From contig CBFFRP010000218.1 in the NCBI GenBank assembly GCA_965644295.1, positions 1-64,000 on the forward strand: a stretch of DNA of 64,000 nt. The letters are read 5' to 3'. Below the pieces are notes generated by a model. That model saw only the letters and a program-made list of their open reading frames with translations. It was not told where the DNA came from and did not search any database. Source of the stretch: Paraphysomonas bandaiensis (lineage: Eukaryota > Protista > Chrysophyceae). The first letter of the stretch is position 1. Each line of letters starts with the position of its first letter. Positions 2,661 to 53,803 of the stretch are shown one piece after another. Made by a program: the position numbers and the translations under genes.

Positions 2661-3087
2661 TATATAGAATGATTAGTACATAAATAAAGAAGTACAATAT
2701 TTATTTCACCTCTCCCTACATTCCTCTACTTGATATGTGTCTCTTCCTTTAACGCAATGGAACATTGTGACCACGTGGCATTTCCTATGCCCTATCTACG
2801 TGGCTATAGTACCAGAACTGCATGCACTGCCCACTCAGGACCCTATAATATTAGTTTAGGACCCTATATCAAGAACATTACATCATCAGGACCCCATACC
2901 ATGTCTAGGATGCATATTCTATGTTATACTTATTTAGATGATGGATGGGTTAATGAGCTATGATGTACCTACACACGGAATCAACGTTCAGGTGTGATGT
3001 TATCTGCTGATGATGATGTACACTATGTTCTGCTGATGGTGACTTCACGCAATGTGAAATGTGCCACAAATTTATAATAAAGTTCTT

Positions 3088-6000
3088 CGTAGAGAAATAC
3101 GTACTTGGATCGAAAATACAACACTGATACTACAGATCAATCAAACACTCACGGATCCAGTTCGCCCGTTGTCCTCCGTTCAAACTACACTACAGGTAGG
3201 CAAAAGACAAGTCTCTTTGCAAATACTACAGAAATCGTTAGTGATAGGAAATTATGGTGTCTCCCTACAACACAATAATACTACAGCTGATCATGTTCTA
3301 CTGTACACTCTCACTCGTATCCTACAGAGTCACACATGTACAATAACTGAAAACATAATCACTGTGACAAAAACGAATGTGCACGTTGACTTTCATTTCC
3401 ATCACTCGAAGACTTCTATACCGAATCATCATTTAGCTCTACGCACCCCTGTGGCATGTGTATTGTTTCCCACGATACCACATGTCATAAACTTGTACAG
3501 AGTACCTTGGAGGGGCTTCGTCAATGCATCAGCCAGCATCATCTTTGTGGGTAAGTACTCCAATTGAATGCTTCCTTCATCTGCCCTTTCCCTGATGAAT
3601 TCACGCCTCACACGCAGGTATTTTGTACGATATTTGCCTCCGCCTTTCGTTACAAGAGATAGAGTCGAGGTATTGTCTTGCAACACTCGAGGTGCGTCAA
3701 TACTGTATCCTTGTTCCTTTATGAATTCTGCACATTGCACAATCATCATTAACATATCTGATAGACCTACCAACTCTGATTCCGTCGAGTCACGTGTCAC
3801 AATGCGCTGTTTCGACGATTTGCAGAGTACTGTTGCATCCCCCACCTTTACGACCAGACCCGAATGACCCTTTCCATCGTCATGAGTCCCAAATGCCGCA
3901 TCGACGTATCCAGTAACGGTAAGATTCTTTCCAATGCACAGCAACAAGTCCTGCCCCTTAGTCGCGTTCAGGTAGCGGGTCACCCTGCCAAGTTTCTCCA
4001 TGTCAGCATGCGTCGGATTCTTGACTCTCGTGCTAAGGTAAGCGACTGCAAGCAGTATGTCTGGTCTAACCCTTTTGGCCAGGTACAGCAACTGAGCCAC
4101 CATCTTGTGAAACTTCCTTCTATCACTCTTACTAGTGGGTTTGTCCATGGTGTTCTTAAATAGAGTAGCTGTAGCAGGTGATGTAGCAGTTCCTGTCACT
4201 CCGTGTTCTCGTAGAAAATTCTCGATGTACGATCTCATGGACACTGTCACCTTATCTCCCTCTGCTCTAATGTGCATTCCGAGATATGACAGATCTTTCC
4301 CATCGTCGTGCTTTACATCCCCAAACTTCTCTTTCAGTTTCTTAAGCAACTCTAGGTAGTCGCCCTTATGGCTTGACATGACCAGTATGTCATCCACGAA
4401 TATCACCACTGTACACTTTCGCCCGCCAGCTACTTTGTTCATTACACATGGGTCGACCGCGTTGTGCTCGAATCCCAAACTTCTCAAATATCCTGTAAGC
4501 GTGTTGTACCAGAGTTTTGCACTCTGGATGCACCCGTATAGCGCCTTGTCCAGCCGCACTAGTAGTTTACCAGTCTCATCAACATACGGTGATACTTCAG
4601 GAGCCACTTTCTTCAATATCGTCGTTAACATTGGCTCTAATTCCATTATGACTTCTTCGCCAGACATCTCGGCGTTCAGGTAAGCGCCTCCTATATCCAT
4701 GGTACCTATGTGACGTCCCTCTTTAGCAGCTATCGCCAGACACATCATAATCGACTGCATTGCTGCTGTTGGTGACGATGTGTCTACGTACACCTTCCTA
4801 TCTTGTTGTGCGCCATTAGCTACCAGTCTTGCTTTTATCTTTTCGAAGCGCCCTAAGCCATCATACTTAGTCTTGAGAAACATCAGAGATCGAATAGCTC
4901 TCTTCAACTGTGTTGCCGATAAGTCTTTGCGGTGTACTGGACGCATAGCCTTCTTGTCATGCAAAAGTTGTTTCAGCTCCGATATGATAGCGTTATATGC
5001 CGGTGGACCATACTCACGCAGTCCCTTCATCGCACTCGTGTGAAAGGCCCTGTACTCTACTGGTTTCGACTTCGCATCCGGCGACCTGTCGTTCTCAACG
5101 CCTGTCTCGTCACTGCTTGTAATGCTGCTGCCGGACTTTATAGTTGGGACATCGTCATCCAGCTCCTCATCAACAAGTTCTGGCACTTCACCTTCATTAT
5201 CACCGTCATCTCCTAGTGGGTCTCCGCTATGCTCTACATCAACCACAGTAGTAGATACATCTTCCACTATTTTTTCTGCAACTGGAGTCTGTTTAACGTC
5301 CTCTGGCGTACTCTCCTTCATGTCTTCGCCTTTCTGCTGCTCTTCTGCTTCTATCGACTGTAGGAGTGGGTTCGGAATCTGACTCTTCCTAGTCGTATCA
5401 CCCATCTTCGCCATCTGATTCATCGCATCAATTATGAGCTGTGTTGTCTTCATTTTCACCCAGTGTGTCCTTCTCACTCGCTTGTGTGTCTTCGCATTCA
5501 TGAAAAACCAGCTACCGTTGGCATTTCCAGTAGGGTACAATGCAATACACGGCTCAGTGCGACTTTGCTCGGCATCGTTGCTTCGCACCTTTGGGTTGTA
5601 GCACTCCACGTAGTCACCAAATGCTAGCTCTAGTTCCTTTCGGTAGTTAGGCTTTCTCCCAGTGAACGCTACTCGTGGCGCTACTATGGATGTGCCTGTA
5701 GACGGCCTTCTGATATTTAGGCGACTGTTTGAGTACTTCACCAGATCTCTGACCATGTTATCAGGCAGTGACCAGGGTAATCCTGCCTGCACAGATCTAA
5801 TAGTCTCTTTCAGTCTCCGTATCTTGAGATCTACCTTGTCCATGTGATCCCCTGCTCCACACACATCCACTTCCACCCCTGTAATCTGTCCTCTGAGGGG
5901 TTGGAAACCAGGCTGCGGATCCAGATAGGCTACAGTTGGTGCGAAACCATGACTTCTTAGTAGAGATACTTGCTCCTGAAAAGCTAGACCTAGATCATCA

Positions 6001-8185
6001 GTCTTCTCACTAGCTACCGGAGATACAAGAGTCAACCCCAGTGGCTCGGACAGTGTTATCAGGAACGGTTGTTTTCTCACACTGAATATATCGGTATACA
6101 AACGTTGCGGCTTGGGCTGATCTGCTTTGATTCCCACGTCCACGTACTGCCTACCGCTCTTACGTTTAGTGGTCTTCCCCCTAACCGCTTCATAAGGCTT
6201 CCCGTATATGTCGAAAGCTCGCCTCACGTCTTGCGCCGTCAACGGCACGTCTGTTACATTTCCGTCGCTCACAAGGTTCATGGCTCCCTGCTCTGAGTCG
6301 AAACCCGCGTTCCGTACAAGTTCCAGCGCCCTCCGAGCTCTCACCACTTCGCTTTTAGTGTATTCTTGTTCTTTCATTCTTGTTGTCGTAATATTTACCC
6401 TGCCTTGTGTCACCCAATCCCTCATATCAGCTATATACATTTTGTTCCGTCTGTAGAACACTAGCTCTCTATTAGGTAGACACACGGTGTATGACACTCC
6501 TGGCTCGTACACAATAGGGTATAGATCTTCGACATCAGCTTGGCACAGCACACTGACTCGTAGGTTGTCGGCAGTTTTGCATGTGAAAAATTGTGGCAGC
6601 TCTCCCACATTGGGCAATTCTACTGCGTGACCAGACAAGCCAGCTACTTTACACTTACGATCGGCAGGTCTCACATCTGTCAGTAGCCACGGGTGCACAA
6701 CGGACACATCCGCCTGATTGTCTAGTAGAACTTCGTACCATTCGAAACACTCTCCTCCCGATGTGAACGCACTCTGCATAGTCACTGAGCATTGTTTCTC
6801 CTCTGGTTCGACGTTCTCTTGACACTGGTTTAGCTTGTGTCCAGTCTTTCCACAACCCCAACATACAATAGGGCCTCTATGCTTTCGCACGCCTCCTTTC
6901 GACTCGTCGGTCCCATTCGACTTCGTCTTGTCATCAGCATCACCTGTGCGACGCTGTTGTTTAGTCGAGGTGTCCTTCCTGCTCACAAACGCAACACCAC
7001 CATTAGGTTTCGCTCCTCTCTTCGGGGTGATATACTTCGAAGCTTTAGTGTAGATCTCGTTCACGTGCTTGGGTGGCTTCTGGGTACCCATCATTAAGTC
7101 GTTCATAAAACTGGTCTTAAACTCCTCATATCTGGTGTCGTCCAGACCCCTGAAGAAGTCCATAGCTATATCTTCTTCTTCCATCTTCGGATTCTCCATA
7201 TCATTGTACGCTTCCAAAAGAAAATCGAAACGCTCCTTATAGGCCACGATACTCTCAAATGGACCCTGACGCACGTCTTGGTACTTCTTTCTCGTTTCTG
7301 CACGCATGATGGTCCCTACATTGGAGTTCGTCGCTGTTTTGTGAGTCTGCTTGATAGCAAGCCACAACAGTAGAGGGTCCTTGGAGGAGTTAATCTCTTC
7401 GTATTCCTCCAATTGCTTAATCGCGTCCACGGACTCGTTGCTCAGTCTGTCATACATGAACGCATAGAAAGCTGATCGGTTGTCACGCATTTGGTCAATC
7501 TTCCTTTGGCGTGTCTTTCTCGCATCCTTAAGTTCTTCCAGGTTCAGACCGTGGGGGTCATTATCGAGATCGTAGTCCTCAATCTTTATCTTGGGTGGTT
7601 CATAATACTCATCGGTCTCCACGAGCCTCGCTAGGTCACCAAATAGCATCATGGCGGCCACTGTGAGCTTCTGCTTAAATACCGCCAGGTTGGTGTTCGT
7701 CCCATACTTCAGAATCGGCACCGTTGGGGTCAATGCCTCTGCCCCTTGGCCCCTGGACCGCTGGTCCAACGCCTTGTTCCTAAACTTCTTGAGCTTCTCG
7801 TTACTCGACTTCTTCATAATTTCCTATCACGTAGAGAAATACGTACTTGGATCGAAAATACAACACTGATACTACAGATCAATCAAACACTCACGGATCC
7901 AGTTCGCCCGTTGTCCTCCGTTCAAACTACACTACAGGTAGGCAAAAGACAAGTCTCTTTGCAAATACTACAGAAATCGTTAGTGATAGGAAATTATGGT
8001 GTCTCCCTACAACACAATAATACTACAGCTGATCATGTTCTACTGTACACTCTCACTCGTATCCTACAGAGTCACACATGTACAATAACTGAAAACATAA
8101 TCACTGTGACAAAAACGAATGTGCACGTTGACTTTCATTTCCATCACTCGAAGACTTCTATACCGAATCATCATTTAGCTCTACG
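3088..8185 (-). mobile_element. Intact Ty1/Copia LTR retrotransposon with non-canonical CG...CG termini
   Basis: 356-bp LTRs at 3088-3443 and 7830-8185, identical by eye. TSD TTCTT at 3083-3087 and 8186-8190. PPT AGGGGTG next to the 3' LTR. Single gag-pol ORF. Confidence 0.96.
3429..7817 (-). CDS. Copia Gag-Pol polyprotein (1462 aa)
   Basis: Zinc knuckle CWGCGKTGHKLNQC, protease LLDNQA, integrase core, RT (KARLVA, LYGCIQSA, FVDD), RNase H (YVDAAF, STESELV, ADALTKPL) in Copia order. Confidence 0.96.
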   Translation of the reverse strand: MKKSSNEKLKKFRNKALDQRSRGQGAEALTPTVPILKYGTNTNLAVFKQKLTVAAMMLFGDLARLVETDEYYEPPKIKIEDYDLDNDPHGLNLEELKDARKTRQRKIDQMRDNRSAFYAFMYDRLSNESVDAIKQLEEYEEINSSKDPLLLWLAIKQTHKTATNSNVGTIMRAETRKKYQDVRQGPFESIVAYKERFDFLLEAYNDMENPKMEEEDIAMDFFRGLDDTRYEEFKTSFMNDLMMGTQKPPKHVNEIYTKASKYITPKRGAKPNGGVAFVSRKDTSTKQQRRTGDADDKTKSNGTDESKGGVRKHRGPIVCWGCGKTGHKLNQCQENVEPEEKQCSVTMQSAFTSGGECFEWYEVLLDNQADVSVVHPWLLTDVRPADRKCKVAGLSGHAVELPNVGELPQFFTCKTADNLRVSVLCQADVEDLYPIVYEPGVSYTVCLPNRELVFYRRNKMYIADMRDWVTQGRVNITTTRMKEQEYTKSEVVRARRALELVRNAGFDSEQGAMNLVSDGNVTDVPLTAQDVRRAFDIYGKPYEAVRGKTTKRKSGRQYVDVGIKADQPKPQRLYTDIFSVRKQPFLITLSEPLGLTLVSPVASEKTDDLGLAFQEQVSLLRSHGFAPTVAYLDPQPGFQPLRGQITGVEVDVCGAGDHMDKVDLKIRRLKETIRSVQAGLPWSLPDNMVRDLVKYSNSRLNIRRPSTGTSIVAPRVAFTGRKPNYRKELELAFGDYVECYNPKVRSNDAEQSRTEPCIALYPTGNANGSWFFMNAKTHKRVRRTHWVKMKTTQLIIDAMNQMAKMGDTTRKSQIPNPLLQSIEAEEQQKGEDMKESTPEDVKQTPVAEKIVEDVSTTVVDVEHSGDPLGDDGDNEGEVPELVDEELDDDVPTIKSGSSITSSDETGVENDRSPDAKSKPVEYRAFHTSAMKGLREYGPPAYNAIISELKQLLHDKKAMRPVHRKDLSATQLKRAIRSLMFLKTKYDGLGRFEKIKARLVANGAQQDRKVYVDTSSPTAAMQSIMMCLAIAAKEGRHIGTMDIGGAYLNAEMSGEEVIMELEPMLTTILKKVAPEVSPYVDETGKLLVRLDKALYGCIQSAKLWYNTLTGYLRSLGFEHNAVDPCVMNKVAGGRKCTVVIFVDDILVMSSHKGDYLELLKKLKEKFGDVKHDDGKDLSYLGMHIRAEGDKVTVSMRSYIENFLREHGVTGTATSPATATLFKNTMDKPTSKSDRRKFHKMVAQLLYLAKRVRPDILLAVAYLSTRVKNPTHADMEKLGRVTRYLNATKGQDLLLCIGKNLTVTGYVDAAFGTHDDGKGHSGLVVKVGDATVLCKSSKQRIVTRDSTESELVGLSDMLMMIVQCAEFIKEQGYSIDAPRVLQDNTSTLSLVTKGGGKYRTKYLRVRREFIRERADEGSIQLEYLPTKMMLADALTKPLQGTLYKFMTCGIVGNNTHATGVRRAK

Positions 8186-10172
8186 TTCTTGGTCCAGAAG
8201 TGAGATCGCGATATATCGCGAGTACGTTGATTTTCATAGCATTTGAATGTTTTTTTCTCTCTCGGAAGTTGTCCGAAAATAATGACAAAAGGGGTTCAAA
8301 AAGGTCTATTTGCCAGAACTATCCATTTGGTCATTCATGACTCTAATTTATAGTAAATATCACCACATCTTTTGAGATCATCTTCCTGAATCATTCATCT
8401 TGCACTGTGTCAAAGGATTATCGCCAAAGAGCTCTTTGCTTCAATATGGAAGAGGTTGAAGATGGCCTGCTTTGCTTGCTATCTCAGAGTGTCTAATGGA
8501 CTTTTCTGAACTTAATAGTATACAATTGCTTACGTTTTCCCATAATGGAAAACAGTTTTGTGCGTTTAATGGGATTTTTTCTTTTCTCACTGCCATTTTC
8601 AAGTCTCATGAGAATATCCCTTGCTCGGAGCCGAAACAGTTATACCAGTACCCACAAATCCTCGTCCTGATGCCGTTTCTTTCGGAGACATGACATATTT
8701 ACAGTTCAGGGACGCATTGGTAAAGACCTTTGTGGAAAATCCTATAGACTTCAGGGGAAACATGTTGTCATTAGGATTTAACTCCGATAAACATTTGAAT
8801 GAGTTGCAGGATCTGTGCCGTGGATTATTTCTGGCAGAATTGCACGCCAATACTCACTGGTTCGGTGGGAGACAATATTCAGAGCTTCTGGTCTTTGTAG
8901 TGTCAACACTTTCCATGTCTTATGAAAGCAATTGAGTTTGGTTATTCGGCAAGTTCATTGACTGGCACATCAGCGGAGCAGATGTTTTCCTACGCTGATC
9001 GACAATGCAAAGCAAATAGTAGGGTCCAGGCCAATATGTCCCTCAGAGGTTCATGTCAAGGTAACACTCCTAAACAACCTCTTCGACATAAGCAAAATTT
9101 CAATCAATGCGAATCTTGGTGTTCATTTCAAGTACCCCATTTCTTGCTATTATACTATTAGGCCTTATTCTTCATAATAATCAAGCATTACCTTTTAACA
9201 ATACAAAGTGTATCTTTCATTAAACACTAAGAGATAAAGAATACAAGTAAGTTTACTACGAGTGATGCAGCAGATGATTACGTTAATTTAGTAGATGTGA
9301 TGATATCTCATTTGCAAATGCTTGAAGCAGCTGTTATTGAAAATAACATCTAGCCACTATACCGTAATAATATATACCAACTATTTTTTCATTGTTGAAC
9401 CGTTTCTAGTTTTATTAAGTAATATGATAATAATTATTATATCAGCACAAAATATAATAGTGAATTTATAAATGTACTGTTATTGCGGTCGGTGAAAACT
9501 AACCAGCAAATCATGGATACAAATGAAAAACATACGTCAAAGCAGCACATATATATCAAACATTATAAATAATATATCACACATCATGCAAGGGATATAT
9601 CATCAAAAGTTCGTGCATCGCTGCAGTTCCTGTTGGAAACAACATAAACAAACAAACGCTCAAAATTTGAAGGTTTAACATTTTCACCTGATTGATAATT
9701 CTTATTCCAAAGGCCAGTAATGTGTTTCTGGAAGTGAAAAATGATGTCAAGAAAATAAATGCCAATGTAGCCTAGAGAGGCTTAGAAACACAACGCCACA
9801 GGTAAAAAGCAATAACATGCAATTACTGTAGGACTATCCACTTACATATAGAATATAATATATACGTGTACATGTCCTGTATTATATGATTAGTAGTACA
9901 GTACTGTATTGTATACGTGTACCATGTAGTTAGGAATACAAACTGTAGGGAATGTGATTGTTGTTGGGATTAGCAATAGCCGTTGATATTGTAGACAGTA
10001 TAATTAGCCGTTGATATTGTAGACAGTATTATTCATGATTCATTATACGATAATAATCATTATTTTGTACTTCTGTACTTGGGTATTGCTTTGCACACAT
10101 ACACATATGTATGCAAGCCCACAGTAATATTACTTAATAAGTAGTACTCAATCTCTGTGATATAACAATATT

Positions 10173-13100
10173 ATGGGGGAAAGTAAGAGAAGCAAAATAA
10201 AAGCAGCTCCTCAAATAGAGGAATTGTTAGCTGCTTCGGGTTCTTCGTCTAAAAAGACGAAAAGAGAGAGAGAATCCTCTCGAAAACGAGCAAGAGATGC
10301 AACAACATCATCTCAAATGCAATCTTCTCCTCAAACTGAAACATCAGTAGAGGCGGAAGGAGAATTGAGTGGAGTATCATTTCGTGAGCTCTCTTCTTCT
10401 CAACCAAAGAGAAAGAAGCAAAGGAGTGGAGATCCGCACCCCAACAGGAGTGAGCGCATTGACTTGAATGAAGTCATTGCAACGGAATCCACTCCACATG
10501 AAGTAATCAATACCGACTCTATTCCCTACTTAGGTAGTGTGCAAGATGAGGATATCATCGAATTTTGTGAAAATCTCTCGAAAAGAGATCCTAAAGGGAC
10601 AAAATTCATAAGGTCAGAAATCATGGCACCAACAGTGCGTGATATGCTTCAGTTTCAGCGACAGCAGGATTTTGGAGATGAGTCTGACGAGGACTGGCTA
10701 GATCCTAACATTGTAACTACTGAGGAATTGATTCAGTGGTTAAAGCAAGCCTTTCTAGAGGAAGAGGAGCGATACTCTGATACATTGGAGCCTCTTCCTA
10801 GGTTCATAGATAATATCATTGGACCAAAAGTTAAGGTGGATATTCATGTTCCTAAAGTATTCTTAAAAGAATATGGACGTCTGAATGAGCTTTATAAGCT
10901 CATTCCGGAGGCAAGTCTCACAGAGGTAGCCTCGGATACCATAGTCAAAACCCTCAAGAAAAACATCAAACTTGTGGGCGGACATTCCTTCAGAAAGGAT
11001 GCCAAAGAGAAATTTATAGCGGATATAGGCCAAGGTCAATCTGCACCAAAAGATTTCGGAGCATTCTGTAGAAAGGTGCGAGAGCTTAACAATGACTATA
11101 GTCAAGCTGTGAGAAAAGTAAAGAGGATGGAAACTAAATTGGATTCCAAAGAAACGTCTAAGTCTAACAAGTCTAAGACTACAAAAACTTCATCCTCCAG
11201 CTCATCCTCAAGTACTAAAGCAACAACTGATACTAAGGAAGCATGTTGGATATGCGGTAATCTTCATAAAGGTGACTGCACCCGCAAAACCTGTGCATGG
11301 GCTAACCATGAAAAGAAGCCATGGAAAGATTCCACACAGGGCAAAAAATATGCGGCTATGGGTTGGAGTACCTGCCCTTATGTGGAGAATCCTGATGGTC
11401 CTCCGAGATCGAGAACAAGTAAGTTATCATGCCCTAAGTGTTTATATATAAATGCTATTGACATGAATAATGATATGCTCGATGTCTTTGTATGTCCTAA
11501 AGCTGATGTCAATGTACAACAGGTAAAGGAAAATCTAAGGGCTAAAGCCTTATTGGACACGGGGGCTACTGGGAATAATTTCATTAACCAAGAACTTGCT
11601 GATATGTTAGTTGCTAGGTATAATATTCCATTGCACGAGTGTAACATTAAAATTTGTAGTGCGCTTGATAATGCTTGTTGTAGTAGCAAGCAATATATGA
11701 TAATAACTATAAGATTAACTGATGAGTATAACAATACTCTTGATATTGAGTTGCAATGTTTGATAATAGATAGCACCTTTGATATCATAATTGGTAGAGA
11801 AACTATCAAGAAATATAGATTAGTTGATCATTTTCCATCTCACTTTATGGAAAGAGAGTTAGCAGGGAAAATGCTAGCTACGGCCGCGGGCCATGCTGAG
11901 AAGACTCAGCTTCTCTCGGAACATATTAGTGAGAGAGCCACATGTTATAATAACATGGAAACATTAAGGCGCCAAGCTAAGGAACACCTTAGTTATAATA
12001 ATAATTTACTTACAAGTAATAGCTTGGTTAGTACTATGTATTCACCTCCAATATCATCCATGCGTATAAGTGCATATGAAAAGGAAGATATAGGCGAGAT
12101 TAGAGATAACTATCTGGAGTCAATCCCAGAAGAAATAGTTACAAATACTCAGGAAAAAGTAGAAGGTACTACGTTACCAAATAAAATCTCTGGTCCCGAA
12201 TCTTTACAAAGGAGGGTGAGAGAAATCCATGAAATCTATAAGGATAGATTTAAAACCACAGTGTCGGAGATGCCAATGGATGTTCCACCTTCTTTTGAAT
12301 TAGAGGTAGATAGGGATGCCTGGGAACAACCAAAACATTGTGGTCCGCCACGAAAGATGGATCGAGTACGACAGTATGCTTGTAAAAAGCAAATCGATAC
12401 ATTTGTGGAGCATGGAATAATACAACCAAGTACGGCTCCTTATTATAGCCAGGTATTATTAGTTCCCAAACCAAATGATAAATGGCGATTCTGTGTAGAC
12501 TATAAAGGTCTAAACAAGCACACACAGAGGGAACGTTGGCCAATACCTAACATCAAAGAAATGTTAGAACGTATTGGGTCTAAGAAACCCAAATACTTCA
12601 TAATTCTGGATTTAGTATCTGGTTATTACCAGGCTAAAATTTCAGAGTACTCGAGGAAGTGGACGGCATTTATAACCTTCTGGGGAGTATTCGAATGGCT
12701 CCGACTACCCATGGGTTTGAGTGGTGCTCCATCATACTTTCAACGAGTATTAACAACAATTGTGCTTGCCGGGTTGATTATGTTCATATGTGAATTATAT
12801 CTAGATGACCTGATTATATATGCTTCTACAGAAGATGAACTAATTGAAAATTACGTTAAAGTTCTAGAACGCTTCAGGAAATACAATGTTTACATTAATC
12901 CTGAGAAAGTGAAAATAGGAGAGTCCGAAGTACAATATGTAGGACATACTCTAAATGAGGAAGGGTTACACTTTACTAGAGAACGTCTGGATAGTGTATT
13001 AAATTTCCCAAAGCCTGAAACTATGAAGGGTCTAAAATCTTTCCTCGGATTGGCAAATTATTTTCGGGATCACGTGCACAACCACTCCTTAGTGGTGAGA

Positions 13101-13646
13101 CCGTTAAATAAAATGCTTCTCAACTATCATAGACGTAAACGTCTACAATGGACAGAGGATGCCAATGAAGCATTTGAAAAGATCAAATTGATGATCCATG
13201 AATGTCCAACATTATTTTTCATTGATGACGAGTCACCAATATATTTATTGACCGATGCATCTGATTATGGAATAGGAGCATACCTCTACCAAGTAGTAGA
13301 TGGTGTAGAACGTCCAATAGGATTTCTCAGTAAAACATTCGATGAAAGAATGATGAATTGGGATACACCTCAGAAAGAAGGATATGCTATATACTATGCC
13401 TTAGATAAATGGGACTACCTATTAAGGTATAGATACTTTACGATCAAAACAGATCATAAAAATATTACTCAGTTGAGAACTGATTACGCTAAGGATAAGA
13501 AAGTTCAGCGATGGTTGAAATGTTTCCAAGCATATGATTATGATCTATGTGATATTAAAGGATCTGATAATGTTGTTGCTGATGCATTTAGTAGACTATG
13601 TGCATTAGAATCTAAAATGGAAACAAAAATTAATGTGCTTCCCTAA
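10173..13646 (+). CDS. Gypsy Gag-protease-RT-RNase H
   Basis: CWICGNLHKGDC knuckle, LLDTGA protease, WRFCVDY, YLDD, RNase H TDASDYGIGA and ADAFSR. Confidence 0.94.
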   Translation: MGESKRSKIKAAPQIEELLAASGSSSKKTKRERESSRKRARDATTSSQMQSSPQTETSVEAEGELSGVSFRELSSSQPKRKKQRSGDPHPNRSERIDLNEVIATESTPHEVINTDSIPYLGSVQDEDIIEFCENLSKRDPKGTKFIRSEIMAPTVRDMLQFQRQQDFGDESDEDWLDPNIVTTEELIQWLKQAFLEEEERYSDTLEPLPRFIDNIIGPKVKVDIHVPKVFLKEYGRLNELYKLIPEASLTEVASDTIVKTLKKNIKLVGGHSFRKDAKEKFIADIGQGQSAPKDFGAFCRKVRELNNDYSQAVRKVKRMETKLDSKETSKSNKSKTTKTSSSSSSSSTKATTDTKEACWICGNLHKGDCTRKTCAWANHEKKPWKDSTQGKKYAAMGWSTCPYVENPDGPPRSRTSKLSCPKCLYINAIDMNNDMLDVFVCPKADVNVQQVKENLRAKALLDTGATGNNFINQELADMLVARYNIPLHECNIKICSALDNACCSSKQYMIITIRLTDEYNNTLDIELQCLIIDSTFDIIIGRETIKKYRLVDHFPSHFMERELAGKMLATAAGHAEKTQLLSEHISERATCYNNMETLRRQAKEHLSYNNNLLTSNSLVSTMYSPPISSMRISAYEKEDIGEIRDNYLESIPEEIVTNTQEKVEGTTLPNKISGPESLQRRVREIHEIYKDRFKTTVSEMPMDVPPSFELEVDRDAWEQPKHCGPPRKMDRVRQYACKKQIDTFVEHGIIQPSTAPYYSQVLLVPKPNDKWRFCVDYKGLNKHTQRERWPIPNIKEMLERIGSKKPKYFIILDLVSGYYQAKISEYSRKWTAFITFWGVFEWLRLPMGLSGAPSYFQRVLTTIVLAGLIMFICELYLDDLIIYASTEDELIENYVKVLERFRKYNVYINPEKVKIGESEVQYVGHTLNEEGLHFTRERLDSVLNFPKPETMKGLKSFLGLANYFRDHVHNHSLVVRPLNKMLLNYHRRKRLQWTEDANEAFEKIKLMIHECPTLFFIDDESPIYLLTDASDYGIGAYLYQVVDGVERPIGFLSKTFDERMMNWDTPQKEGYAIYYALDKWDYLLRYRYFTIKTDHKNITQLRTDYAKDKKVQRWLKCFQAYDYDLCDIKGSDNVVADAFSRLCALESKMETKINVLP

Positions 13647-15013
13647 TTCCCGATATTAAAGTTCCAAACAAGGAATGGGAAATTATTAAAAGATTTCATA
13701 ACAATGTTACAGGTCATCATGGTATTGATCGTACAATACAAAAATTACGAGACAATGGTCATAAATGGTCAAAGCAAGGGGCACATGTGACAAAATTTAT
13801 TAAAACTTGTCCTTGTTGTCAAAAGATGAGTAGAATTAAACCAATAATTAATGCTCATCCCTTTACTGTCTCAACATATGGCCCGATGCAAAGAATAGCA
13901 GTGGATTTTATTCAGAGTCTGCATCCAGATGAGGATGGATACACTAATATATTAGTGATTATCGATTCTTTTTCTAGGTGGGTAGAATTAATCCCTACTA
14001 AGAATCTCACTGCCATGGCGGCGGCAAAGGGATTGCTTCAACACCTGGGTAGATATGGAGCACCTATTGAGATTCATTCGGATCTTGGACCAGCATTTGT
14101 GGATGATTTAACAAAATCATTGATAGAAATGGTTGGAAGTAATCAATCATTTTCGATGGCGTATTCTAAAGAAGAAAATGCTATAGTTGAACGTGCTAAT
14201 AAAGAAATTTTAAGGCACTTAAGGAATATTATATTTGATAAAAATGTACTAAATAATTGGTCAATGTATCTACCTTTAGTACAAAGAATTATGAATTCTT
14301 CTAAACATAGAAGCACCGGCGTTACTCCCGCTAGTATTCTATTTGGGAATGCAGTAGATTTAGATAAAAGTTTATTCATTGAACACAATGAGTACTTGGA
14401 CGGGAATGAACAAAAGCTATCACATTGGATAGATAGAATACAAAAGGTTCAGTCCACTATTATGGATATTGCAAGACGAAATCTTCGCAAACATGATGAA
14501 ATCCACATGGCAACTGCACCAAATATACAAACAAAAGAATTTCCAATAAATTCTTATGTGTTAGTTGAGCATAGACAAAATGCTTTACGTCCTGGACCGG
14601 CAAGTAAGTTATTACCATATCTTAAAGGTCCAATGCGAGTAGTCAATGTTATTGGAGATAAATATACTCTTCAAGATATTGTTACTAAACGTAATAAAGA
14701 CTATCATATAAAGAAATTAAGGGAATTTAATTACGATCCCTCTACTATTGACCCCTTACAAGTGGCATGTAAAGATGGTGGAAACTTTTATGCTATTGAC
14801 CATATTTCAAAAATAAAAGGTCGAGCTAAAGGTCCGAAAAGTCAAATAAAATTTCTAGTACATTGGATAGGGTATGAAAAACCTACATGGGAACCATGGG
14901 CTAACGTTAGAAAAACGTATGCTCTACAAAATTTCCTAACTCAACATCCTGATGAAAATGTAAGAAATTTACTACCTCGAAATGTTGTTTATTCTTCTGA
15001 TGAAGAAGATTAA
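13643..15013 (+). CDS. Gypsy integrase + chromodomain, in the -1 frame relative to the upstream ORF
   Basis: The frame is open upstream of the listed ORF and includes the HHCC finger (FHNNVTGHHG...CPCC). Also DDE core (AVDF, HSDLG, VERAN), GPM motif and chromodomain FLVHWIGY...TWEP. Confidence 0.9.
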   Translation, partial: LIPDIKVPNKEWEIIKRFHNNVTGHHGIDRTIQKLRDNGHKWSKQGAHVTKFIKTCPCCQKMSRIKPIINAHPFTVSTYGPMQRIAVDFIQSLHPDEDGYTNILVIIDSFSRWVELIPTKNLTAMAAAKGLLQHLGRYGAPIEIHSDLGPAFVDDLTKSLIEMVGSNQSFSMAYSKEENAIVERANKEILRHLRNIIFDKNVLNNWSMYLPLVQRIMNSSKHRSTGVTPASILFGNAVDLDKSLFIEHNEYLDGNEQKLSHWIDRIQKVQSTIMDIARRNLRKHDEIHMATAPNIQTKEFPINSYVLVEHRQNALRPGPASKLLPYLKGPMRVVNVIGDKYTLQDIVTKRNKDYHIKKLREFNYDPSTIDPLQVACKDGGNFYAIDHISKIKGRAKGPKSQIKFLVHWIGYEKPTWEPWANVRKTYALQNFLTQHPDENVRNLLPRNVVYSSDEED

Positions 15014-15927
15014 TAACAAAGTTTACAGAATTGAGTGTCAATATAACACATTAACACATCAATTATAAGGGGAGGTAGTGTAGGACTATCCACTTACATA
15101 TAGAATATAATATATACGTGTACATGTCCTGTATTATATGATTAGTAGTACAGTACTGTATTGTATACGTGTACCATGTAGTTAGGAATACAAACTGTAG
15201 GGAATGTGATTGTTGTTGGGATTAGCAATAGCCGTTGATATTGTAGACAGTATAATTAGCCGTTGATATTGTAGACAGTATTATTCATGATTCATTATAC
15301 GATAATAATCATTATTTTGTACTTCTGTACTTGGGTATTGCTTTGCACACATACACATATGTATGCAAGCCCACATTACTTTTGTTAACTCATTAGGAAA
15401 CCGCATATAGACCAGTTCCTGGGCCTTCATCTCTGCAGTAGTAGCCTTGCAGCGGCTACGCCCACCCTTCAATTTACTATACGAGGTGATGTAATATATA
15501 CATATAAGTTTTATATATGAAGGCTATGTATGATATTGTTATTCCACATTAGCTATCAAGTCGCTGGAAGTCTAGCTCTGGATGGGGCACCACCGTTGGC
15601 CAGTGTTGGCTACATGCGCATTACACCCTAAGAGCACTACTCTCAATCCAAAAACAATAACACAAGTCACTCTGCGGTATGTGATGACCTTAAACCGAGA
15701 CAACTACTGATGACAAAGATACACAAGGCATATATGGGAACTAGTTTACCTAAATATATATTGATAAGAACAGCGTAATGAACCTGCATCTGAACTCTCT
15801 CCTTCATACTCCTGTCCGGATGGATACTGTATCCAGATATGCATCATATCATCTCGTGTAGTACAGTATTACTGACGGTAGTACAACAGACACCGAAATG
15901 AAACCTCCAAAAAGCCTTTTTTTGCAG

Positions 15928-18900
15928 TGTTAGCTTTGGACATTTCACTGAAGTTAACTTTGCTCTACACGTAAACCGTAACCTTGCTGTTGAACACAAT
16001 GCACTTTCAAGTAAGAAATTATAATTATTATTCTGAACACTTCACTACATATTCGTGTAACATATGTTGAAACATCTGTTCCCAGCAACACCTGTTTATC
16101 ATATGTTCATCAGTCAGTTCTATATCTTGTATAGTCACACATCAGTAACTGAATTTAATTCCTTTGTAACTATAATCACCCGTTACACCTATGAGTTGAC
16201 TTTACCTATTGCACACTGTTAACTCACTTCAATTGCACAATATATATCACATCATATTGCAGAACTCAACACTCCCACTCAATTGGATGTAGTTAACCAT
16301 TCTAAAATATGTGAAGAACATTGCTATCGGATACGCAACCACCGAACCTCATAGGACACTGGTGGACGTATGACTCCGCTGGTATAGCTAGCTCCCACCA
16401 TTCAGTAACACCTAACTAGGTACGACGAGCTCTCTTTACCTTGGGTACCTCTGCGATAATTTGTTCAGTAGTCTTAAATTTTTCCCCAAGATTTCGCTCC
16501 CTCTGTTCAATGAATATTGGACCTCTCAAAGCCTTGGTATATATATCAGCCATCTGTTGTCGACTGCTCACATGAATTAATTTCGCTGTATTAAACTGTT
16601 CGGGATCCACATGCTCTCTAATCATATGATACTTAATCTCAATATGTTTCGATCGTTGATGTTGCACTGGATTTTCCGATATATCCTGAGCACTTTGACT
16701 ATCCAGGAATAATGGTGTGGGCTCGTCAATTTTCAATCCTACTTCACCAGTCACCCCCCGAGACCATATCATTTCCTGTAATCCATTATATAAGCATTGA
16801 TACTCTGCTTGCATAGTCGATGTAGCTACAGTAGACTGAAGTTTGGAACCCCACGATAGTGGTCCACCAGCTCCAAACATAACATAACCTGAAGTTGATC
16901 TCCTCGTCAACGGATCGCCTGCCCAGTCAGCATCAGTGAACATATGAAGATCAAAATCTCTCCCTCTATAATGAATGCCTTTATCTGTAGTACCTCGTAC
17001 ATACTGCATTAAATACATCAGGAGCTTACATACAGTGATATTAACTTTCGTTGAGAATCGTGACAATACTCCCACTGCATATGAGATATCCGGCCTTGTA
17101 TTCATAGATAAATAGAGTAACGCTCCTAGGAGTGGACGATAGGGAAAATTATCAACTAACTTCTGCTCCTCAGCTGAATGCACATGTTCCACTCCCACTT
17201 TGACATCACTAGGTAGTGGGTATAGCCGCGTCTTGTCCCTTGCACCCAGAAAATCCACATACTTCACCAATATCTTTTTGATGAACACTGTCTGGTCAAG
17301 TTTGAGACAATTCGGAGTTCTCGTCACTCTCACGTTCAAAAAAACTGGCCACTCTCATTCATATCTGTAATATCAAACCTTTCACATACTCGTCGCTTAA
17401 TTTCCAAAATAATATTCGTATCTCGACATGCTCTCAGCATATTATCATCATGACTGTGGTGAGCTTCGAAGACCATATAAACTTTTCTTCAGTTTAAAGC
17501 AATATCCTGGTGGCAATTTGAAATCTGCTGGTGTTGCATACTTATACACACATCTCCTTTTATATCTGCATATACAAGAATGCATTAGATACGTCGAGTT
17601 GATGCACCACCATATTCATAACAAACGCGATAGCTAATAGCAATCTTACTGTTACCGCTTTTACCCCTGGAGTATAATTGTTGGCTCTACCAACCTCATG
17701 GCCTCCGCATCCAAGTACCACAAGTCTTGCTTTCTATCGTGGAATCGCACCCTCCTTGTTGCGTTTCAAAGCAAAGACATACTCAGGATTCCAATTGCAG
17801 TGACACTGGGGTAGGGATGATGGGCTTAACTTCCATTACTTCCCTTCGTTCCAGTCTGTCACGCTCAGCCTGTCTTGCTGTCAATGGAGTGACACTGGGG
17901 TAGGTATGGGCTTAACTTCCATTACTTCCCTTCGTTCCAGTTCGTCACATTCAGCCTGGCTGAACTCCATTGCTTCCGTTCCGGCAACTCCAAGGATTCG
18001 GAATATGTCTGAGGCACCTTAGGTCCCGCTGACGAGCACCAGATGGAATCTGCCTCCTCTAGTAGGCTGCACTCCACTTCGTCACACGAAGGTAATACGT
18101 GCTTCTCCCCTACTACTGACACATTCGTCACCACCCTTGGAGCCCTTGTGCGCCTGCCCCTAGTTGAGCGATCTGATGGAGCTTCCTCTCCCGGAGCACT
18201 TACGAAGTCAGAAGGGGATGGAACCGTCCCAGTCAACTGCTGTAATAAATGTCCGCTGGTCCCGTCGTCACGAGATCCAGAACTAGCAGATACTCTTGTC
18301 ACAAGGTCTTCACTCATCCGCGATGATGTGAATAGGAGTCTTAACTTCCAGTTGCTCCTCACCACCTGACATCAGGGATCTATATCCCACAGTTAGACCT
18401 CTTTCCGAATCTATATTCGCGTGGTCTTGTTGTACAGTTGGCCGCCATCTTCACATGGGTTTTGTCGATAACACTCCTCCCTGAGGAACCACTGCCACCG
18501 TGGCTTAGTCCATTTCTCGGTAGTAATCAGCCGATCTCTAGGGCACTGATACATCAAACAGGGCATGAACAGACGTGACTATTGTATCTCCTACTATCAA
18601 CACTTGATACCCCATCTGCTCGTTGGGAAACCCACAAAATATCCTGTTTGTGCCTTTTCCTCCCAGTCTTTCCGTCTATCGGCCTTCGGGACTAATACAT
18701 ACGCCTTGCACCCCCATTTCCTCTCAACCAGGATAACTCGGGCACCTTTCCTCCCAGGAACACACTCATAAGGCAACATCCACTAACTTTACTGTCCTCC
18801 TTGGCATTTTCCTCCATTACATGATGGCATGATGACGTAATAATAGGCTAATTCAAAACGTCATAATATTATATAGTGCCTCCCATGGCATTCCTCCATG

Positions 18901-20103
18901 CTCATCATAGTCTCCAGCCAGCACCTCTCTACCAGTGTTTAACTCTACAATTCTCGGTACTCTAAGTAGTTCCAATCCACACACCAGTGCCCGCAGCATT
19001 CCGCCTGAGACAATATTCTTCACCGCATCTTCACATACTTTGATGCCTTCTCTTTTGCCAGTGTTGAAAGCTTCCTACTCCTTGAGTCTCCATTGCTGAC
19101 CCCTTCTTCGTCAGAGATATGACTCCTGGCTCTGCTTCATAATATTTCTCTAGCACTCTATGAACTTTAACAACAATGAATAGCTGCTTTCCGGCACAAC
19201 TGTCTAGATACACTCGTTGGTCTACTGTTTCAGTCATAAGCACTTCACCATCAGATTCTATCTTATTGGACTCCCCTCCAGATGAGACATCATCATCTAC
19301 ATATTAGCACCATTCCGCCGATGAACTCTGTCTCTGTCTCTGTTCATGTGTATGTTCAGCACTCCTGCTCGTTATCTATGAACAGCTGCACTGCTCTGCT
19401 GCTCTGCTCAGTGTAGAAGGCAGTTTTAGTAGAAAATACATTTCAGCCTATCAATCTCTATTTCGTCCATATCATTGGCCAATATTTACAAGCTGGTATT
19501 TCGCTGTAGTCTTTTGGAGTACTACTCCCAACTCACTCCTAGACCTATCCACCAGCGTTTGAAGCATATGATTGGACAAAGCTTCCTTATTGGGATCATC
19601 ATGTGGGAGTCGCCTCCATGTATATGTTGGCACCCTCCAATACATCTGCGTCATGTTCACATGCCTCCCAAATCGTTACAACACACGTGTCGTTTCACTT
19701 GTCAAACTTCAGCACCTTGCTGTCCTCCATCGCCTCATCAGAGCTACCACTCGCTACCATGTTAGCTTTGGACATTTCACTGAAGTTAACTTTGCTCTAC
19801 ACGTAAACCGTAACCTTGCTGTTGAACACAATGCACTTTCAAGTAAGAAATTATAATTATTATTCTGAACACTTCACTACATATTCGTGTAACATATGTT
19901 GAAACATCTGTTCCCAGCAACACCTGTTTATCATATGTTCATCAGTCAGTTCTATATCTTGTATAGTCACACATCAGTAACTGAATTTAATTCCTTTGTA
20001 ACTATAATCACCCGTTACACCTATGAGTTGACTTTACCTATTGCACACTGTTAACTCACTTCAATTGCACAATATATATCACATCATATTGCAGAACTCA
20101 ACA
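15928..20103 (-). mobile_element. Non-autonomous (internally decayed) Copia element
   Basis: 344-bp TG...CA LTRs at 15928-16271 and 19760-20103, identical by eye. TSD TGCAG. PBS TGGTAGCGAG and PPT present. Gag/PR/IN/RT are fragmented (YLDSCAG, WGCKAYV remnants). Confidence 0.93.
16416..17339 (-). pseudogene. Uninterrupted Copia RT-C-terminal/RNase H frame inside the decayed element
   Basis: 307 open codons with TRPDISYAVG, FTDADWAG and KHIEIKYH. Closely similar to ORF 14-1093. Confidence 0.85.
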
Positions 20104-27230: not shown

Positions 27231-30200
27231 AAATAAGATTTAAGGTTAGTCTTAATATTTAGTAAGAATATACTTGATATTATTAGAGATAAAGATTGAA
27301 CGATAAGGCCTAATAGTATAATAGCAAGACACGTTTGAGCAGAGCGTTAGCACCACACACATGTGCGTATCTTGTACAGTCGCGTATCATGTATAGTTTG
27401 GTAATTATTCAGTCTATTTGGTATTTCATTGTATATGTGTGTTGTATTCACGCGTTAAGAGATATACGTGAATCAATGACTCCTAATACTCCCCCTCAAT
27501 GAAATAATCATATGGCGTATACATAGATATATGGATATAGGTGTATATATTTGGAGATAGTTCTACTGAGGGTAAAACCCACGAGTGCAATCACAGATTG
27601 TGGATTACACTGATGTCAACATACAGCATACTCGTGGGAAACTCCGTAGATCTCTAAGTCATCCATCGTGGTCTCTTGGTTGAGTTCTCTGCCGGTGGGA
27701 TAGATACTTTTGTTCTTTTATTGCTAGCAGGTATGTTGATACCTCCCCCCCATTAGTGAATCCCGCAATCTGTGGAACGTGTTTGATGTGAGGGGTTTAG
27801 TTAGAATGTCGGCCAGCATCTCGTTTGTAGGCATGTAATCAACAATAATAGAGTGCGATGCGACTTGTTCTCTTATGAAGTGATATCTGATGGCAATATG
27901 TTTTGTTCGTCGGTGGTGTACGGGGTTTAGGCATAGTTGAATTGCACCTTTGTTGTCACACCATATGGTTGTTGAGTATGGCATGTGGAAGCCCAATTCC
28001 GAGAGTAGTGACCGTAGCCAAATAGCTTCTTGACATGCTGTTGATAGTGCCATGTACTCCGCTTCTGTAGAGGATAGAGCTACAGTGGTCTGGAGTCGTG
28101 ATTGCCAGGAAATGAGACAATTTCCAATAAAGAAGCAAAACGCTGTGGTCGACCTGCGAGTTAAGTTACAGCGTGCCCAATCACTGTCAGCGAATCCAGT
28201 TAAAGTAACAGACTTCCCGGAGTACTGTAGACCTTGATCGATAGTGCCTTTGAGGTACCTAAGTATGTTTAATGCGGCTTTGCATGTAGTTAGATTTGGA
28301 TTAGTACTGAAACGAGCAAGGGTGTTTACAGCATATGCAATATCAGGTCTAGTGCACACAGCAATATACATAAGTGAACCTATGAGCTCCTTGTAAGGAA
28401 AATTTTGGACAAATTCTTGATTTTCTTGAGATAGTTGTTTCTTTTCGAGAATGTCTATATGAAAATTTGTTGTCATGGGGTGACTACGTGGCTTGCAATC
28501 TTCCATGTTGAATCTGTGGAGTAGGTTCCGTATGTATTGAGATTGATTTAGTGTCGTAGTTCGATTCTGTATATCCTGTTTGACGAATATGCCGAGGTAG
28601 TAATCTAGGAGGCCGAGATCATGAATGTCGAATTTTTCAGCTAACGAATTCTTGATTTGGATGATGTCAGTCCTACTTTTACCGGCGATAATGATGTCAT
28701 CGACGTAAACTGCCAGAATTATGGGTCGACCATTGATTGATTTCGTGAATATGCACGGGTCGGACACTAATCTGGTAAAACCACAGTCTAACAAATAATT
28801 AGTACAACATTTATACCAATTTAACCCGGACTGTTTGAGTCCGTATATACTCTTTAGAAGTCTGAGGACTTTACCGTTTGGAACATTGAGACCAGCGGGT
28901 GGATACATGTAAATTTCCTCTTGGAGGTCTGCATTGATGTAAGCAGTGGAGAAATCTACCTGGTGAAGCTCCAACCCAAGTATAGTTGCTAGTGCTATGA
29001 CTGTTCTCATTGATGTGGCCTTTGCGACTGGGCTGTAGGTTTCGTTGTAGTCTTTACCCTCGACCTGGGAGAAACCTTGAGCCACTAACCTCGCCTTGAA
29101 GGTAACCTCATCTCGCTTGACCTTTACCCTAAACACGAATTTTCCCCTTATAATGTTGGAATTTGCTGGTGGTGTCGTTATCCTCCAACAGCCTTTGCTC
29201 TCTAGAGACTTGATTTCTTTGTTGATGGCTTTCAGCCATTGTTCCTTGTACCTGCCTGATAGTGCCTCGCCAACATTGTTAGGTGTGTTAGGTACATCAT
29301 TGCTACATGTGTCATTTGCATGCATAATGATGTCAACATCATTCATGTATAATGTTCTGTAACTATCATGTTTATCAGGTGTTTTGTGGTTGTACAAATA
29401 TCTTTTATCAACATCACAGTGGTATATATTATCACCGAATTTGTGTACATTCATGATTACCCTTTTCCTGGTCTGCCTCTTGCTGTGGAGACTTTTCTTT
29501 ACGCAACGGCTCACCTTGTGTCGGTGGGGTGTCCTTACACCCGTAATTGTGCCATCCGGGCTTTGCCGGCTCCTGTCACCCTGGGAATTCACAGTCTTGA
29601 TAGCTCGTTTGACCTTACGAGCAGGGTGATCACGCTTGTTGTCACCCCGTGCCTCCTTCGGCACTGTATTCCGCTGAGCTTCTGCTGTGCGGCGAGGCCT
29701 TGCCTCCTTTTCATTTGAGTAGGGTCCTCTCAAATGGCTGTGACTCCCGCCCCGTGTGGCGTCATGACGGCTGTCGGTTGAACTGCTCCTCCCTGGAGCT
29801 GTTCCTTCCACGGGGCATCCTGGTTCCTCTTGCGGGGGTGATACCGCGTTCTGATAACTGAAGTGCTCGGCGGTGTATCTTTCGATGTCCGCAGCGTGTA
29901 TTGGGTCATTTAACTCGATGACTCGCCCTTCATTTTCTCGTGGGGCCAATCCTCTGTAAGCAGCCACGTGGCCTTTGATGACTGTGATTCTTGTCGTGAT
30001 GTATTGGAGGCCATCCTGTGGATCTGTGTGGGTCATTCCAACGAGGTATTGGAAGCTCTCGGTTGTTCGATTCTCTGAATTTTCTTCTCTCAGTGATGAT
30101 TCGATTTCAGCGTAGTAGTTTTCCTTGACGTCGGGGATGCACTCATTGAAAAAGACGTGACTTGAGATTACGAAGTCCTTGAGTGAAGGTACATATATGA

Positions 30201-37809: not shown

Positions 37810-37919
37810 GATAAAAGAGATTATGATTTCATTTATAGTGTGTGTGTAGAGTGAATGTGATGGATATATATGTATGTATGTAGAGAGAGAGGTGTGTATA
37901 TATATATATATGTGTATAT

Positions 37920-38370
37920 GTAGAGCAGGAGAGTGTAGTGGGTAAAGTATATGGACTGCTGTGTATAGTAGTATAGTGTACTCATGTGTAGTGTACTCAT
38001 GTGTAGTGTACTGGTGTATAGTGTACTGGTGTATGGTGTGTATATATCATATAGGTACGGCATACGGTGTTATGATCGTACAGGTAAAGTATATGGACTG
38101 CTGTAGAGAGTAGTATAGTGTACTGGTGTATAGTGGACTGCTGTATAGAGTAGTATAGTAGTATGGTGTACTGGTGTATAGTGGACTGCTGTATAGAGTA
38201 GTATAGTAGTATGGTGTACTGGTGTATGGTGTACTGATGTATAGTGTACTGGTGTATAGTGTACTGGTGTATATACAGTGTTATGTTCATACAGGTAAAG
38301 TATATGGACTGCTGTATAGAGTAGTAGAGTAGTATAGTGTACTGATGTACCGGTGTATGGTGTGTGTATC
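37920..38370. repeat. Degenerate minisatellite (GTATAGTGTACTG-like units) in the divergent intergenic region
   Basis: Direct reading of the sequence. Confidence 0.8.
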
Positions 38371-49762: not shown

Positions 49763-50169
49763 AATACACTAATACTATCAGCTGTATTTGCCATTGGTGA
49801 GGGGAGAAAGAATTAGGTGAAAGAACAAGACTTTCACACCTAGTATTTAGGAACAATTTCACAAGAACACCAGGATGGTGTTTTCTACTTTGTGATATAG
49901 TTGACATTTATGATGTTAAGACATCTAATTAATAAGAATAAGTGATGTGTGGATTTCCATATTATTTTGTTATTCAGATTGCGTCATGTGCTTAATCACG
50001 ATCAATGAACACAACACTCAGTTAAATGGAACTTTCATAATACATAATCGTATGCCATCGATTAGTTCATTTTAGAACATACGTATCATAACCCAACAAC
50101 GAATACTCCATGTAGACTTGAAAGTATTAATGTATAGCCTTGGTCCTTGGTTGTGGTGGATTAAACAAG

Positions 50170-51321: not shown

Positions 51322-52077
51322 AATAGTTATGAGATTAAGTGAAAGATGAGAGTGAGAGGAGAGAGATATGAATGAATGGACATACATATATATACACTGG
51401 CGGTACATGCATATACATATATATACATATATATAGACAGTATATTTTAGTTCAAAAATGTCTTGTATATTGAGACAATAATTATCTGTATTCTAGCCGT
51501 AGTTGTATGTAGGTAATATAGAAATATTTGCTTCAATTTATTCCCGAAAAATAAGATATACGCTAGTACATATGTATACGAGTACGAAGTTGTGTACGAA
51601 CCAGTCGATAACTATATACAGAAAATACAGAGAAATAAGTCAGAGCATAAGATATCCGGATATCTAGATATCTGTGGGTGGGAAAATATGCTCATAAAAA
51701 AACAGGACACAGCTAAAAACCAGGGCTTTTTTCTTGTCGACTCTTTTCCACCGGGATGGATATACAAAATACCACATCGACTGAGAATTTTATGTATAGT
51801 TTTTTATTTGAAAAACATGGCAATTCGGCTATTCCTATTTGTCAAAATTCAAAATTTCCAAAATTTGTGGAAAAAATACTGAAATTATAACAAATTCATT
51901 CCCAAAATACTGAAATTTTTATCTACGAAGTTTCATATGTACAAATATGGCCCAATCAATTGCCTCAAGTGCGTATGTGATATTATGCATGTACCGCCAG
52001 TGTGTATATATATGTATGTCCATTCATTCATATCTCTCTCCTCTCACTCTCATCTTTCACTTAATCTCATAACTATT

Positions 52078-53229: not shown

Positions 53230-53803
53230 CTTGTTTAATCCACCACAACCAAGGACCAAGGCTATACATTTAATACTTTGAAGTCTACATAGAGTATTTT
53301 TTATGGGGTTATGATACGTATGTTTTAAAACGAGGTAATCGATGGCATACGATTATGTATTATAACTGTTCCATTTAACTGAGTGTTGTGTTCATTAATT
53401 GTGGTTAAACACATGACGCAGTCCTAATATATAATATATAAAGTAATATAGAAATCTACACATCACTTATTCTTATTACTTTGATGTCTTAACATCATAA
53501 ATGTCAACTATATCAGTAGAAAACACCATCTTGGTGTTGTGAAATGGTTCCTAAATACTAGGTGTGAAAGTCTTGTTATTTGCAATAAGTATCGATAACA
53601 GCACCTTATAAGTAGCTAGATGACACCTAGTCAAGCTAGATAGACTTCCACCTACAACTAACTAACTTCTACCTAAATACTAAATACCAACATAATTCTT
53701 TCTCCCTATAGCAAATGTAGTAGCTATTATTATACAGCAATTAAGCAGTGGCCTGTTAATGGGTATATACAGTGATATAATACACCACATATATTCATAG
53801 TAT

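Follow-up and report, generated by a model that had tools for sequence, protein, structure and literature searches.

Does a retroviral-type integrase require DNA ends that finish in CA-3'? The terminal CA is described as invariant for retroviral-type integration (PMC5329712), and the reason for its conservation has been called poorly understood (10.1101/137141; statements on these and all other cited papers apply to the excerpts available). The question is raised by a 64,000-bp stretch from the chrysophyte Paraphysomonas bandaiensis (contig CBFFRP010000218.1, positions 1–64,000; hereafter the window), which harbours a long terminal repeat (LTR) retrotransposon of the Copia type with ends CG...CG and with an integrase whose third catalytic residue is Asp instead of Glu (Table 1).

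The element is a young, intact Copia-type retrotransposon. Direct LTRs with a target-site duplication (TSD), an integrase encoded ahead of the reverse transcriptase (RT) and an RT of the Copia type (RVT_2) assign it to Ty1/copia; the place of the canonical 5'-TG...CA-3' ends is taken by CG...CG. Both 356-bp LTRs start with CGTAGAG and finish with CTCTACG, and the match between them stops at the first outside base on both sides. The open reading frame (ORF; minus strand, 7817 to 3429) extends over 1462 amino acids without a stop codon. A second copy of the element is absent from the window. The original prediction, made from the letters of the window, had claimed the CGTAGAG/CTCTACG termini of both LTRs, an intact ORF flanked by identical LTRs, and boundaries fixed independently by the TTCTT TSD, the polypurine tract (PPT) and the points where the LTR copies cease to match. 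All of this was borne out: the four termini are identical, the LTR copies show 0/356 mismatches, and contig breaks in public data agree with the boundaries.

Among 24 public sequencing runs listed in a contig check, 20 (from 14 studies, mostly of marine samples) hold the stretch or part of it, and boundary breaks were read in four independent runs from four studies. In these four runs, 12 contigs break off behind 8185 with a mutual agreement of 0.52–0.67, i.e., with differing flanks, while five break off before 7830 and two before 7829; at most one contig per run behind 8185 may represent the PPT junction instead. Single contigs break behind 8186 and behind 8187, as expected from chance matches of the flanks, and no break was found at 7831–7832 or 8183–8184 among the 24 of 50 loose contig ends inspected. 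Since contigs of four independent runs break at identical boundaries, CG represents the end of the family. An origin of the CG ends from assembly error or mutation after insertion has negligible probability in view of the four identical LTR termini and these shared boundaries; moreover, decay cannot explain CG ends, because methyl-CpG deamination would run the opposite way, turning CG...CG into TG...CA. Thus, the earlier argument from symmetric ends against post-insertion mutation held, and the terminal bases, for which lacking read support had been named as the critical weakness, recur as the same boundaries in other data.

The left flank is a high-copy repeat which continues with other letters after 3084 in three of the four runs, and the repeat of the right flank starts elsewhere at about 8186. 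The element therefore inserted at the junction of the two, and its TTCTT duplication is real; the evidence for the TSD stems from this single locus. The left repeat (2978–3084) is of very high depth, and the right one (8186–8400) starts at about TTCTTGG, following varied flanks in several runs.

Alternatively, the ends might be shifted by one or two bases. The PPT finishes in TG, such that the element could start with TG-CG, and positions 3082 and 8185 are both G, such that a 6-bp duplication (GTTCTT), with the last G contributed by the host, is formally possible at this locus, an ambiguity that the original prediction had not considered. The longer duplication was rejected since contigs with differing flanks break behind 8185 and before 7830. 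The TG-shifted start was rejected on account of the LTR copies diverging immediately outside CG on both sides, the same contig breaks, and the TG-ended relatives, which carry the same GGGGTG before their own TG. For the relative L069, divergence of the LTR pair likewise gives a CG end, and shifted ends are very improbable.

The CG ends are not confined to this element. From metagenomes, 78 related loci were fetched, and 80 were kept of at least 355 confirmed. Both ends were tabulated for loci that scored 9 or more for the PPT and had a primer duplex that could be resolved (see below); L006 was dropped owing to a wrongly picked duplex, and L069 was added from pair divergence. With both ends readable in 34 loci (window element included), 26 have TG..CA, six CG..CG, one TG..CG and one CG..CA. 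The LTR starts directly after an RGGGGTG-type tract, a PPT motif common to the relatives, as determined by pair divergence in L007, L020, L047 and L050. At junctions scoring at least 10, where the first LTR base was left free, only T or C was found. In L069, a member of an unrelated family (42 % RT identity), divergence of the two LTR copies places the end at TTCTACG.

Trees of the RT-RNase H region were calculated with FastTree (76 loci; 192 rows) and with IQ-TREE (22 + 48 rows; LG+G4, no mixture model, 14 near-duplicate or unlabelled loci left out, unrooted split). All CG..CG loci fall into one FastTree clade (0.998 with 76 loci, 0.895 with 192 rows), and an IQ-TREE branch (84/96) separates 22 rows, comprising every CG..CG locus and every row bearing Asp, from the 48 others. 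Within this clade, RT-RNase H sequences are about 40–56 % identical to that of the element, and 12 of the 15 loci with a PPT region start with CG, a reading made by eye in four cases of low motif score. A Chaetoceros protein (P0060), sister to L069, is placed in the clade, and Fragilaria proteins belong to the group with Glu. P0121, in the element's 90 % cluster, is labelled Paraphysomonas (taxid 36769), and seven further full-length members of this cluster are 99.0–99.6 % identical, all with Asp; together with the identical LTRs, these are consistent with recent activity. Viral contigs yielded no relatives. Contigs of prokaryote genomes yielded 10 related loci, and those with a readable motif or junction are of the Glu or TG type. 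A single fixation of CG ends and Asp is likely, in an ancestor common to the elements now found in chrysophytes and diatoms.

Apparent ends of a mixed kind occur among relatives with Glu integrases, i.e., TG..TA (L017), TG..CG (L022), a C start (L056) and CG..CA (L064), and are possible intermediates. In a sub-branch of the Asp clade (L051, L053, L062 and L029), CC, CA or CGA follows the PPT motif, owing either to a change of the second base as well or to a junction at another position.

The integrase is not matched by the Pfam model rve, solved structures, searched by sequence with only the integrase as query, gave nothing useful, and an Atlas search returned unnamed clusters only. Its model (predicted local distance difference test, pLDDT, 94) displays the RNase H-type core fold of integrases, matching intasomes of prototype foamy virus (PFV) with Foldseek E values of about 1e-10 and the cores of the feline and the human (type 1, HIV-1) immunodeficiency viruses with Z 16.1 and a root-mean-square deviation (rmsd) of 2.4–2.8 Å over 140–141 aligned residues. 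D576 and D633 are conserved without exception across 53 aligned sequences. The third catalytic residue is D663, with 29 residues between D633 and D663 (27–33 in the relatives with Glu), in place of the Glu about 35 residues after the second Asp of a DDE triad. This triad is described as invariant for retroviral-type integration, and the Glu at its third position is generally regarded as unchanging among the integrases of retroviruses and LTR elements.

D663 was aligned by hhalign with the Glu of two other integrases of the window, from its canonical Copia (E = 5e-6) and its Gypsy element (E = 0.005), and the Glu of the latter aligns to PFV 'KVER', which contains the catalytic E221. In the model, D663 occupies the fourth position of the helix behind the active-site loop; seven residues further on stands an invariant Lys, in the register of HIV E152/K159. 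In HIV and PFV, the helix carrying this residue meets the DNA end. As to an N-terminal HHCC zinc-binding motif, a 331-residue alignment shows no conserved His/Cys columns, with TG-ended relatives being alike, and a structural match to HIV residues 1–203 has an rmsd of 18 Å.

Asp and Glu are distributed along the same split as the ends. Inside the clade, Asp occupies the third position in all nine loci for which integrase sequence exists and in 68 of 69 proteins; outside, it is Glu in 47/47 loci, 42/45 proteins and 120/120 further outgroup proteins, the three exceptional proteins with Asp falling on the clade's side in IQ-TREE. The proteins P0086, P0089 and P0109 carry Asp and branch early. Across the integrase alignment, a complete separation of the groups is given by this column alone (8/8 versus 0/45). 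One may ask whether the Asp enzyme is defective and mobilization is supplied in trans by the Glu integrase of another family, given that Glu is regarded as invariant and that canonical elements reside in the same genome. However, Asp is retained throughout a deep clade of intact ORFs, in which the other two Asp residues and the fold are conserved, making mobilization in trans very improbable. Since the ends are element-encoded and are shared by other copies and by a deep lineage, the integrase must join a G-3' end. Accordingly, the original prediction of an integrase acting on CG-3' at both ends is supported for the joining step. The contrary case, that most other copies might turn out to be TG...CA, was not seen in the contigs, where other copies share the boundaries, and the six CG..CG loci form one clade. 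The Glu-to-Asp change and the lack of a tRNA primer site had escaped the original prediction.

The 5' LTR is directly followed by a primer-binding site (PBS) starting with TGA; judged at this post-LTR site, no tRNA-type PBS, i.e., no TGG for pairing with the CCA end of a tRNA, was found. The 15 bases of the PBS plus the last G of the LTR form a perfect complement of LTR nt 188–203, and this 16-nt duplex exceeds both the minimum of 10 nt of complementarity between LTR and post-5'-LTR site used as threshold and the longest such duplex in 200 shuffles (10 nt). For a transcript starting at this LTR segment, the predicted pairing probability is 0.88–1.0. Most relatives with both junctions, TG- as well as CG-ended, show a duplex of 10–18 nt, often just after a TCA word, and the last base of the primer (C) pairs with the terminal G in five of five CG loci tested. 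This complementarity suggests that the element is likely primed by its own RNA in the manner of Tf1, the mechanism of which (PMC7175516) matches the observed arrangement of the duplex; the test applied to self-priming in plants, a PBS complementary to an LTR segment (PMC6317226), is satisfied as well. Because both TG- and CG-ended relatives show the duplex, self-priming would go back to the ancestor of the wider family and have no tie to CG.

Overall, the locus is best explained by a CG...CG Copia whose Asp integrase likely joins G-3' ends with a 5-bp stagger and for which self-priming is predicted, and this explanation is considered to be probably correct. Transcription would start near LTR nt 188, the RNA's first ~15 nt would pair back with the PBS and be released by RNase H to act as primer, as in Tf1; the PPT would fix the other end. 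With two bound metals, the D-D-D integrase would then join the two CG-3' ends to host DNA at a distance of five bases.

How the Asp relates to the terminal G is a separate matter. Possibly, a widespread and active protist Copia lineage replaced CA-3' by CG-3' and Glu by Asp together, the shorter Asp re-setting the metal beside the terminal base so that G is joined; this would constitute a natural specificity switch of an LTR integrase. The weakest step, less likely than not, is to read the Asp as adapted to the terminal G, a link drawn from a single origin. An almost even chance is assigned to CG ends and Asp being both real and independent, with integrases that tolerate either purine (CR-3') and one lineage that drifted to CG and separately to Asp. 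Such independence would agree with the single origin, with the mixed ends of Glu-bearing L022, L064 and L056, and with another Copia of the window whose TA..TT ends in an AAGCA duplication imply that odd ends are not rare here. Indeed, CG..CG requires two separate transitions and both intermediates occur with Glu integrases, so the family seems to tolerate either purine at times. Drift is less readily reconciled with CG being fixed across elements as divergent in RT as the clade members, despite under-represented CpG (observed/expected 0.66 in the window) and deamination toward TG..CA, nor with the sharpest marker of the integrase being located on the very helix that meets the DNA end.

Several points weigh against a CG-ended lineage with a matched integrase as outlined above: (i) the start is ambiguous in L051, L053 and L062, and L055 and L072 are unreadable; (ii) the IQ-TREE branch of the clade is not starred (bootstrap 84) and unrooted; (iii) the U5 ends of most relatives were placed by the self-primer rule (C beside the duplex) and not by flanks; (iv) P0037 carries Glu inside the clade; (v) many other integrase columns separate the groups nearly as well as the third-residue column; (vi) the mapping of D663 rests on profile alignment, not on superposed coordinates; (vii) the RNA start site, the RNase H cut, any trimming of the ends and the chemistry are steps that we infer; (viii) CG and Asp change on one branch and therefore provide one independent contrast only; and (ix) Asp is not required for a C start or a G end, since Glu-bearing L056 and L064 (C start; the L064 junction being ambiguous) and L022 (G end) exist. 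Since the lineage is natural and recently active and comes with TG/Glu relatives for comparison, with intermediates of mixed ends and with an apparent reversion, the question of end base and residue is testable.

Table 1. Features of the Copia-type element and its flanks (positions in the window; residues refer to the gag-pol product)
Feature	Position	Strand	Basis
Copia-type element	3088–8185	-	paired LTRs, ORF
TSD, left copy, TTCTT	3083..3087	.	sequence, flank repeats
TSD, right copy, TTCTT	8186..8190	.	sequence
3' LTR (element sense), 356 bp, CGTAGAG...CTCTACG, contains the stop codon of the ORF	3088..3443	-	
5' LTR (element sense), 356 bp, same sequence as 3' LTR	7830..8185	-	
PPT, sense CACAGGGGTG, abuts the LTR directly	3444..3453	-	
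gag-pol ORF, single, intact, 1462 aa, order gag-protease-integrase-RT-RNase H	3429..7817	-	
Gag CCHC zinc knuckle, single, residues 319–332	6822..6863	-	sequence; profile matches to nucleocapsid proteins
Integrase catalytic core, residues 567–721, triad D576/D633/D663	5655..6119	-	alignment, model, structure matches
D663 codon, Asp in the catalytic Glu column (PFV E221)	5829..5831	-	alignments
RT, Pfam RVT_2, residues 973–1212	4182..4901	-	E=1.7e-30
PBS, sense TGATAGGAAATTATG, ends in the gag ATG, without TGG	7815..7829	-	sequence
Predicted self-primer, LTR nt 188–203	7983..7998 (second copy 3241–3256)	-	complement of PBS plus last G of the LTR
Five GT-AG introns in RNA antisense to RT/RNase H	3551–3617, 3692–3764, 3919–3971, 4038–4082, 4680–4726	+	polyA metatranscriptome contigs, run X15

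The RT/RNase H region of the element is also represented by antisense RNA. Five introns of 45–73 nt are absent from polyA contigs of one run (X15; unstranded contigs), and of the five antisense GTAAG sites in 1.27 kb of this region, four are used by them. Conserved antisense splice signals were rejected, as this GTAAG density is not common to the other loci of the clade (0.54 per kb). An antisense protein was likewise rejected, as the spliced RNA contains no long ATG-led frame and its longest stop-free stretch comprises 183 aa without Met. The RNA is likely non-coding and spliced by the host.

Several further features were observed in the window. The Copia element with TA...TT ends mentioned above (27231–32856, minus strand; ends in element sense) is intact and canonical, with a 1627-aa frame (Pfam rve and RVT_2), identical LTRs, the AAGCA duplication and a PBS starting with TGG. 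Another Copia (15928–20103, minus strand) lacks a long ORF; its 344-bp LTRs are identical, have canonical TG...CA ends and lie within a TGCAG duplication, and it serves as in-window control for normal ends. The Gypsy element (9824–15378, plus strand) has 303-bp LTRs (99.3 %) with apparent TA...TA ends, no duplication at those boundaries and, where a tRNA site would be expected behind the 5' LTR, a near-palindromic stretch. A 1563-aa ankyrin-like protein is encoded by about 49 copies of an 87-bp unit (58118–62806, minus strand); such repeat proteins occur in giant viruses and protists. An inverted duplication of 1269 bp (98 %) at 50129–53270 contains two paralogous frames of about 440 aa, the one frame scanned having no Pfam match and looking ATP-grasp-like by eye. 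At 35318–38046 (minus strand), a multi-exon host gene encodes a protein kinase, likely polo-like (Pkinase, E=3e-43).

LTR ends other than TG...CA are known; new, as far as the literature was searched, is the combination of CG ends and Asp in a Copia lineage. No description of CG-ended LTRs or of a DDD LTR integrase was found by title and start of abstract, with most subscription papers, Repbase and GyDB outside the scope; the ends of the diatom elements CoDi3.2, 4.2 and 4.3, unread here, may be prior art. The CoDi elements (diatom Ty1/copia; Maumus et al. 2009, PMC2806351) are likewise stramenopile Copia of 5–8 kb with short LTRs, and TG/CA is stated to be missing in CoDi3.2, 4.2 and 4.3 (PMC2806351). 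Neither a primer mechanism nor an integrase triad is described there, as far as the excerpts go. No named CoDi protein was among the 120 best matches listed; the element may resemble CoDiII/CoDi5.

In plants, the non-TGCA Copia elements Tos17 (TG..GA), AtRE1 (TA..TA) and TARE1 (TA..CA) also have short LTRs (about 270–320 bp) and a 5-bp duplication (10.1101/137141, PMC9804982). The excerpts of these plant surveys give the first base as always T and, for lotus, the last base as A or T. In contrast, the first base is C and the last G in the present element, the ends mirror each other perfectly as inverted repeats, and the feature is lineage-wide. The fallback list of LTR_retriever comprises seven motifs, with the first base T reported as invariable (10.1101/137141); since none of the listed motifs starts otherwise, CG ends would not be reported by motif, which supports the earlier expectation that finders bound to TG...CA by default miss the family. 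As the integrase escapes Pfam rve in addition, annotations of protist genomes probably under-represent the lineage.

Zam and the errantiviruses (LTRs AGTTA...TAAYT; PMC3601003) likewise depart from TG..CA across a whole lineage, first base included. These differ from the present element in belonging to the Gypsy superfamily and in their T-3' end. Zam and errantiviruses are tRNA-primed. A PBS complementary to an LTR-internal segment and not to a tRNA is shared with Tf1/Sushi, Tcn1 and the plant TAR elements (Houba, Osr-1; PMC7175516, PMC6317226); compared with Tf1 (Gypsy, 11-nt duplex), the duplex of the element is longer (16 nt) and includes the last base of the LTR, and the lineage is unrelated. 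Fungal GalEa likewise lacks a tRNA site but, according to the excerpt, also an LTR complement (PMC5445492). The third Asp finds its counterpart outside LTR elements. The cut-and-paste DNA transposases of mariner (DD34D) and piggyBac have an RNase H fold with a DDD triad, in which Asp is the third metal ligand. In P. bandaiensis, by contrast, DDD is found in the integrase of an LTR retroelement, with a spacing of 29 residues.

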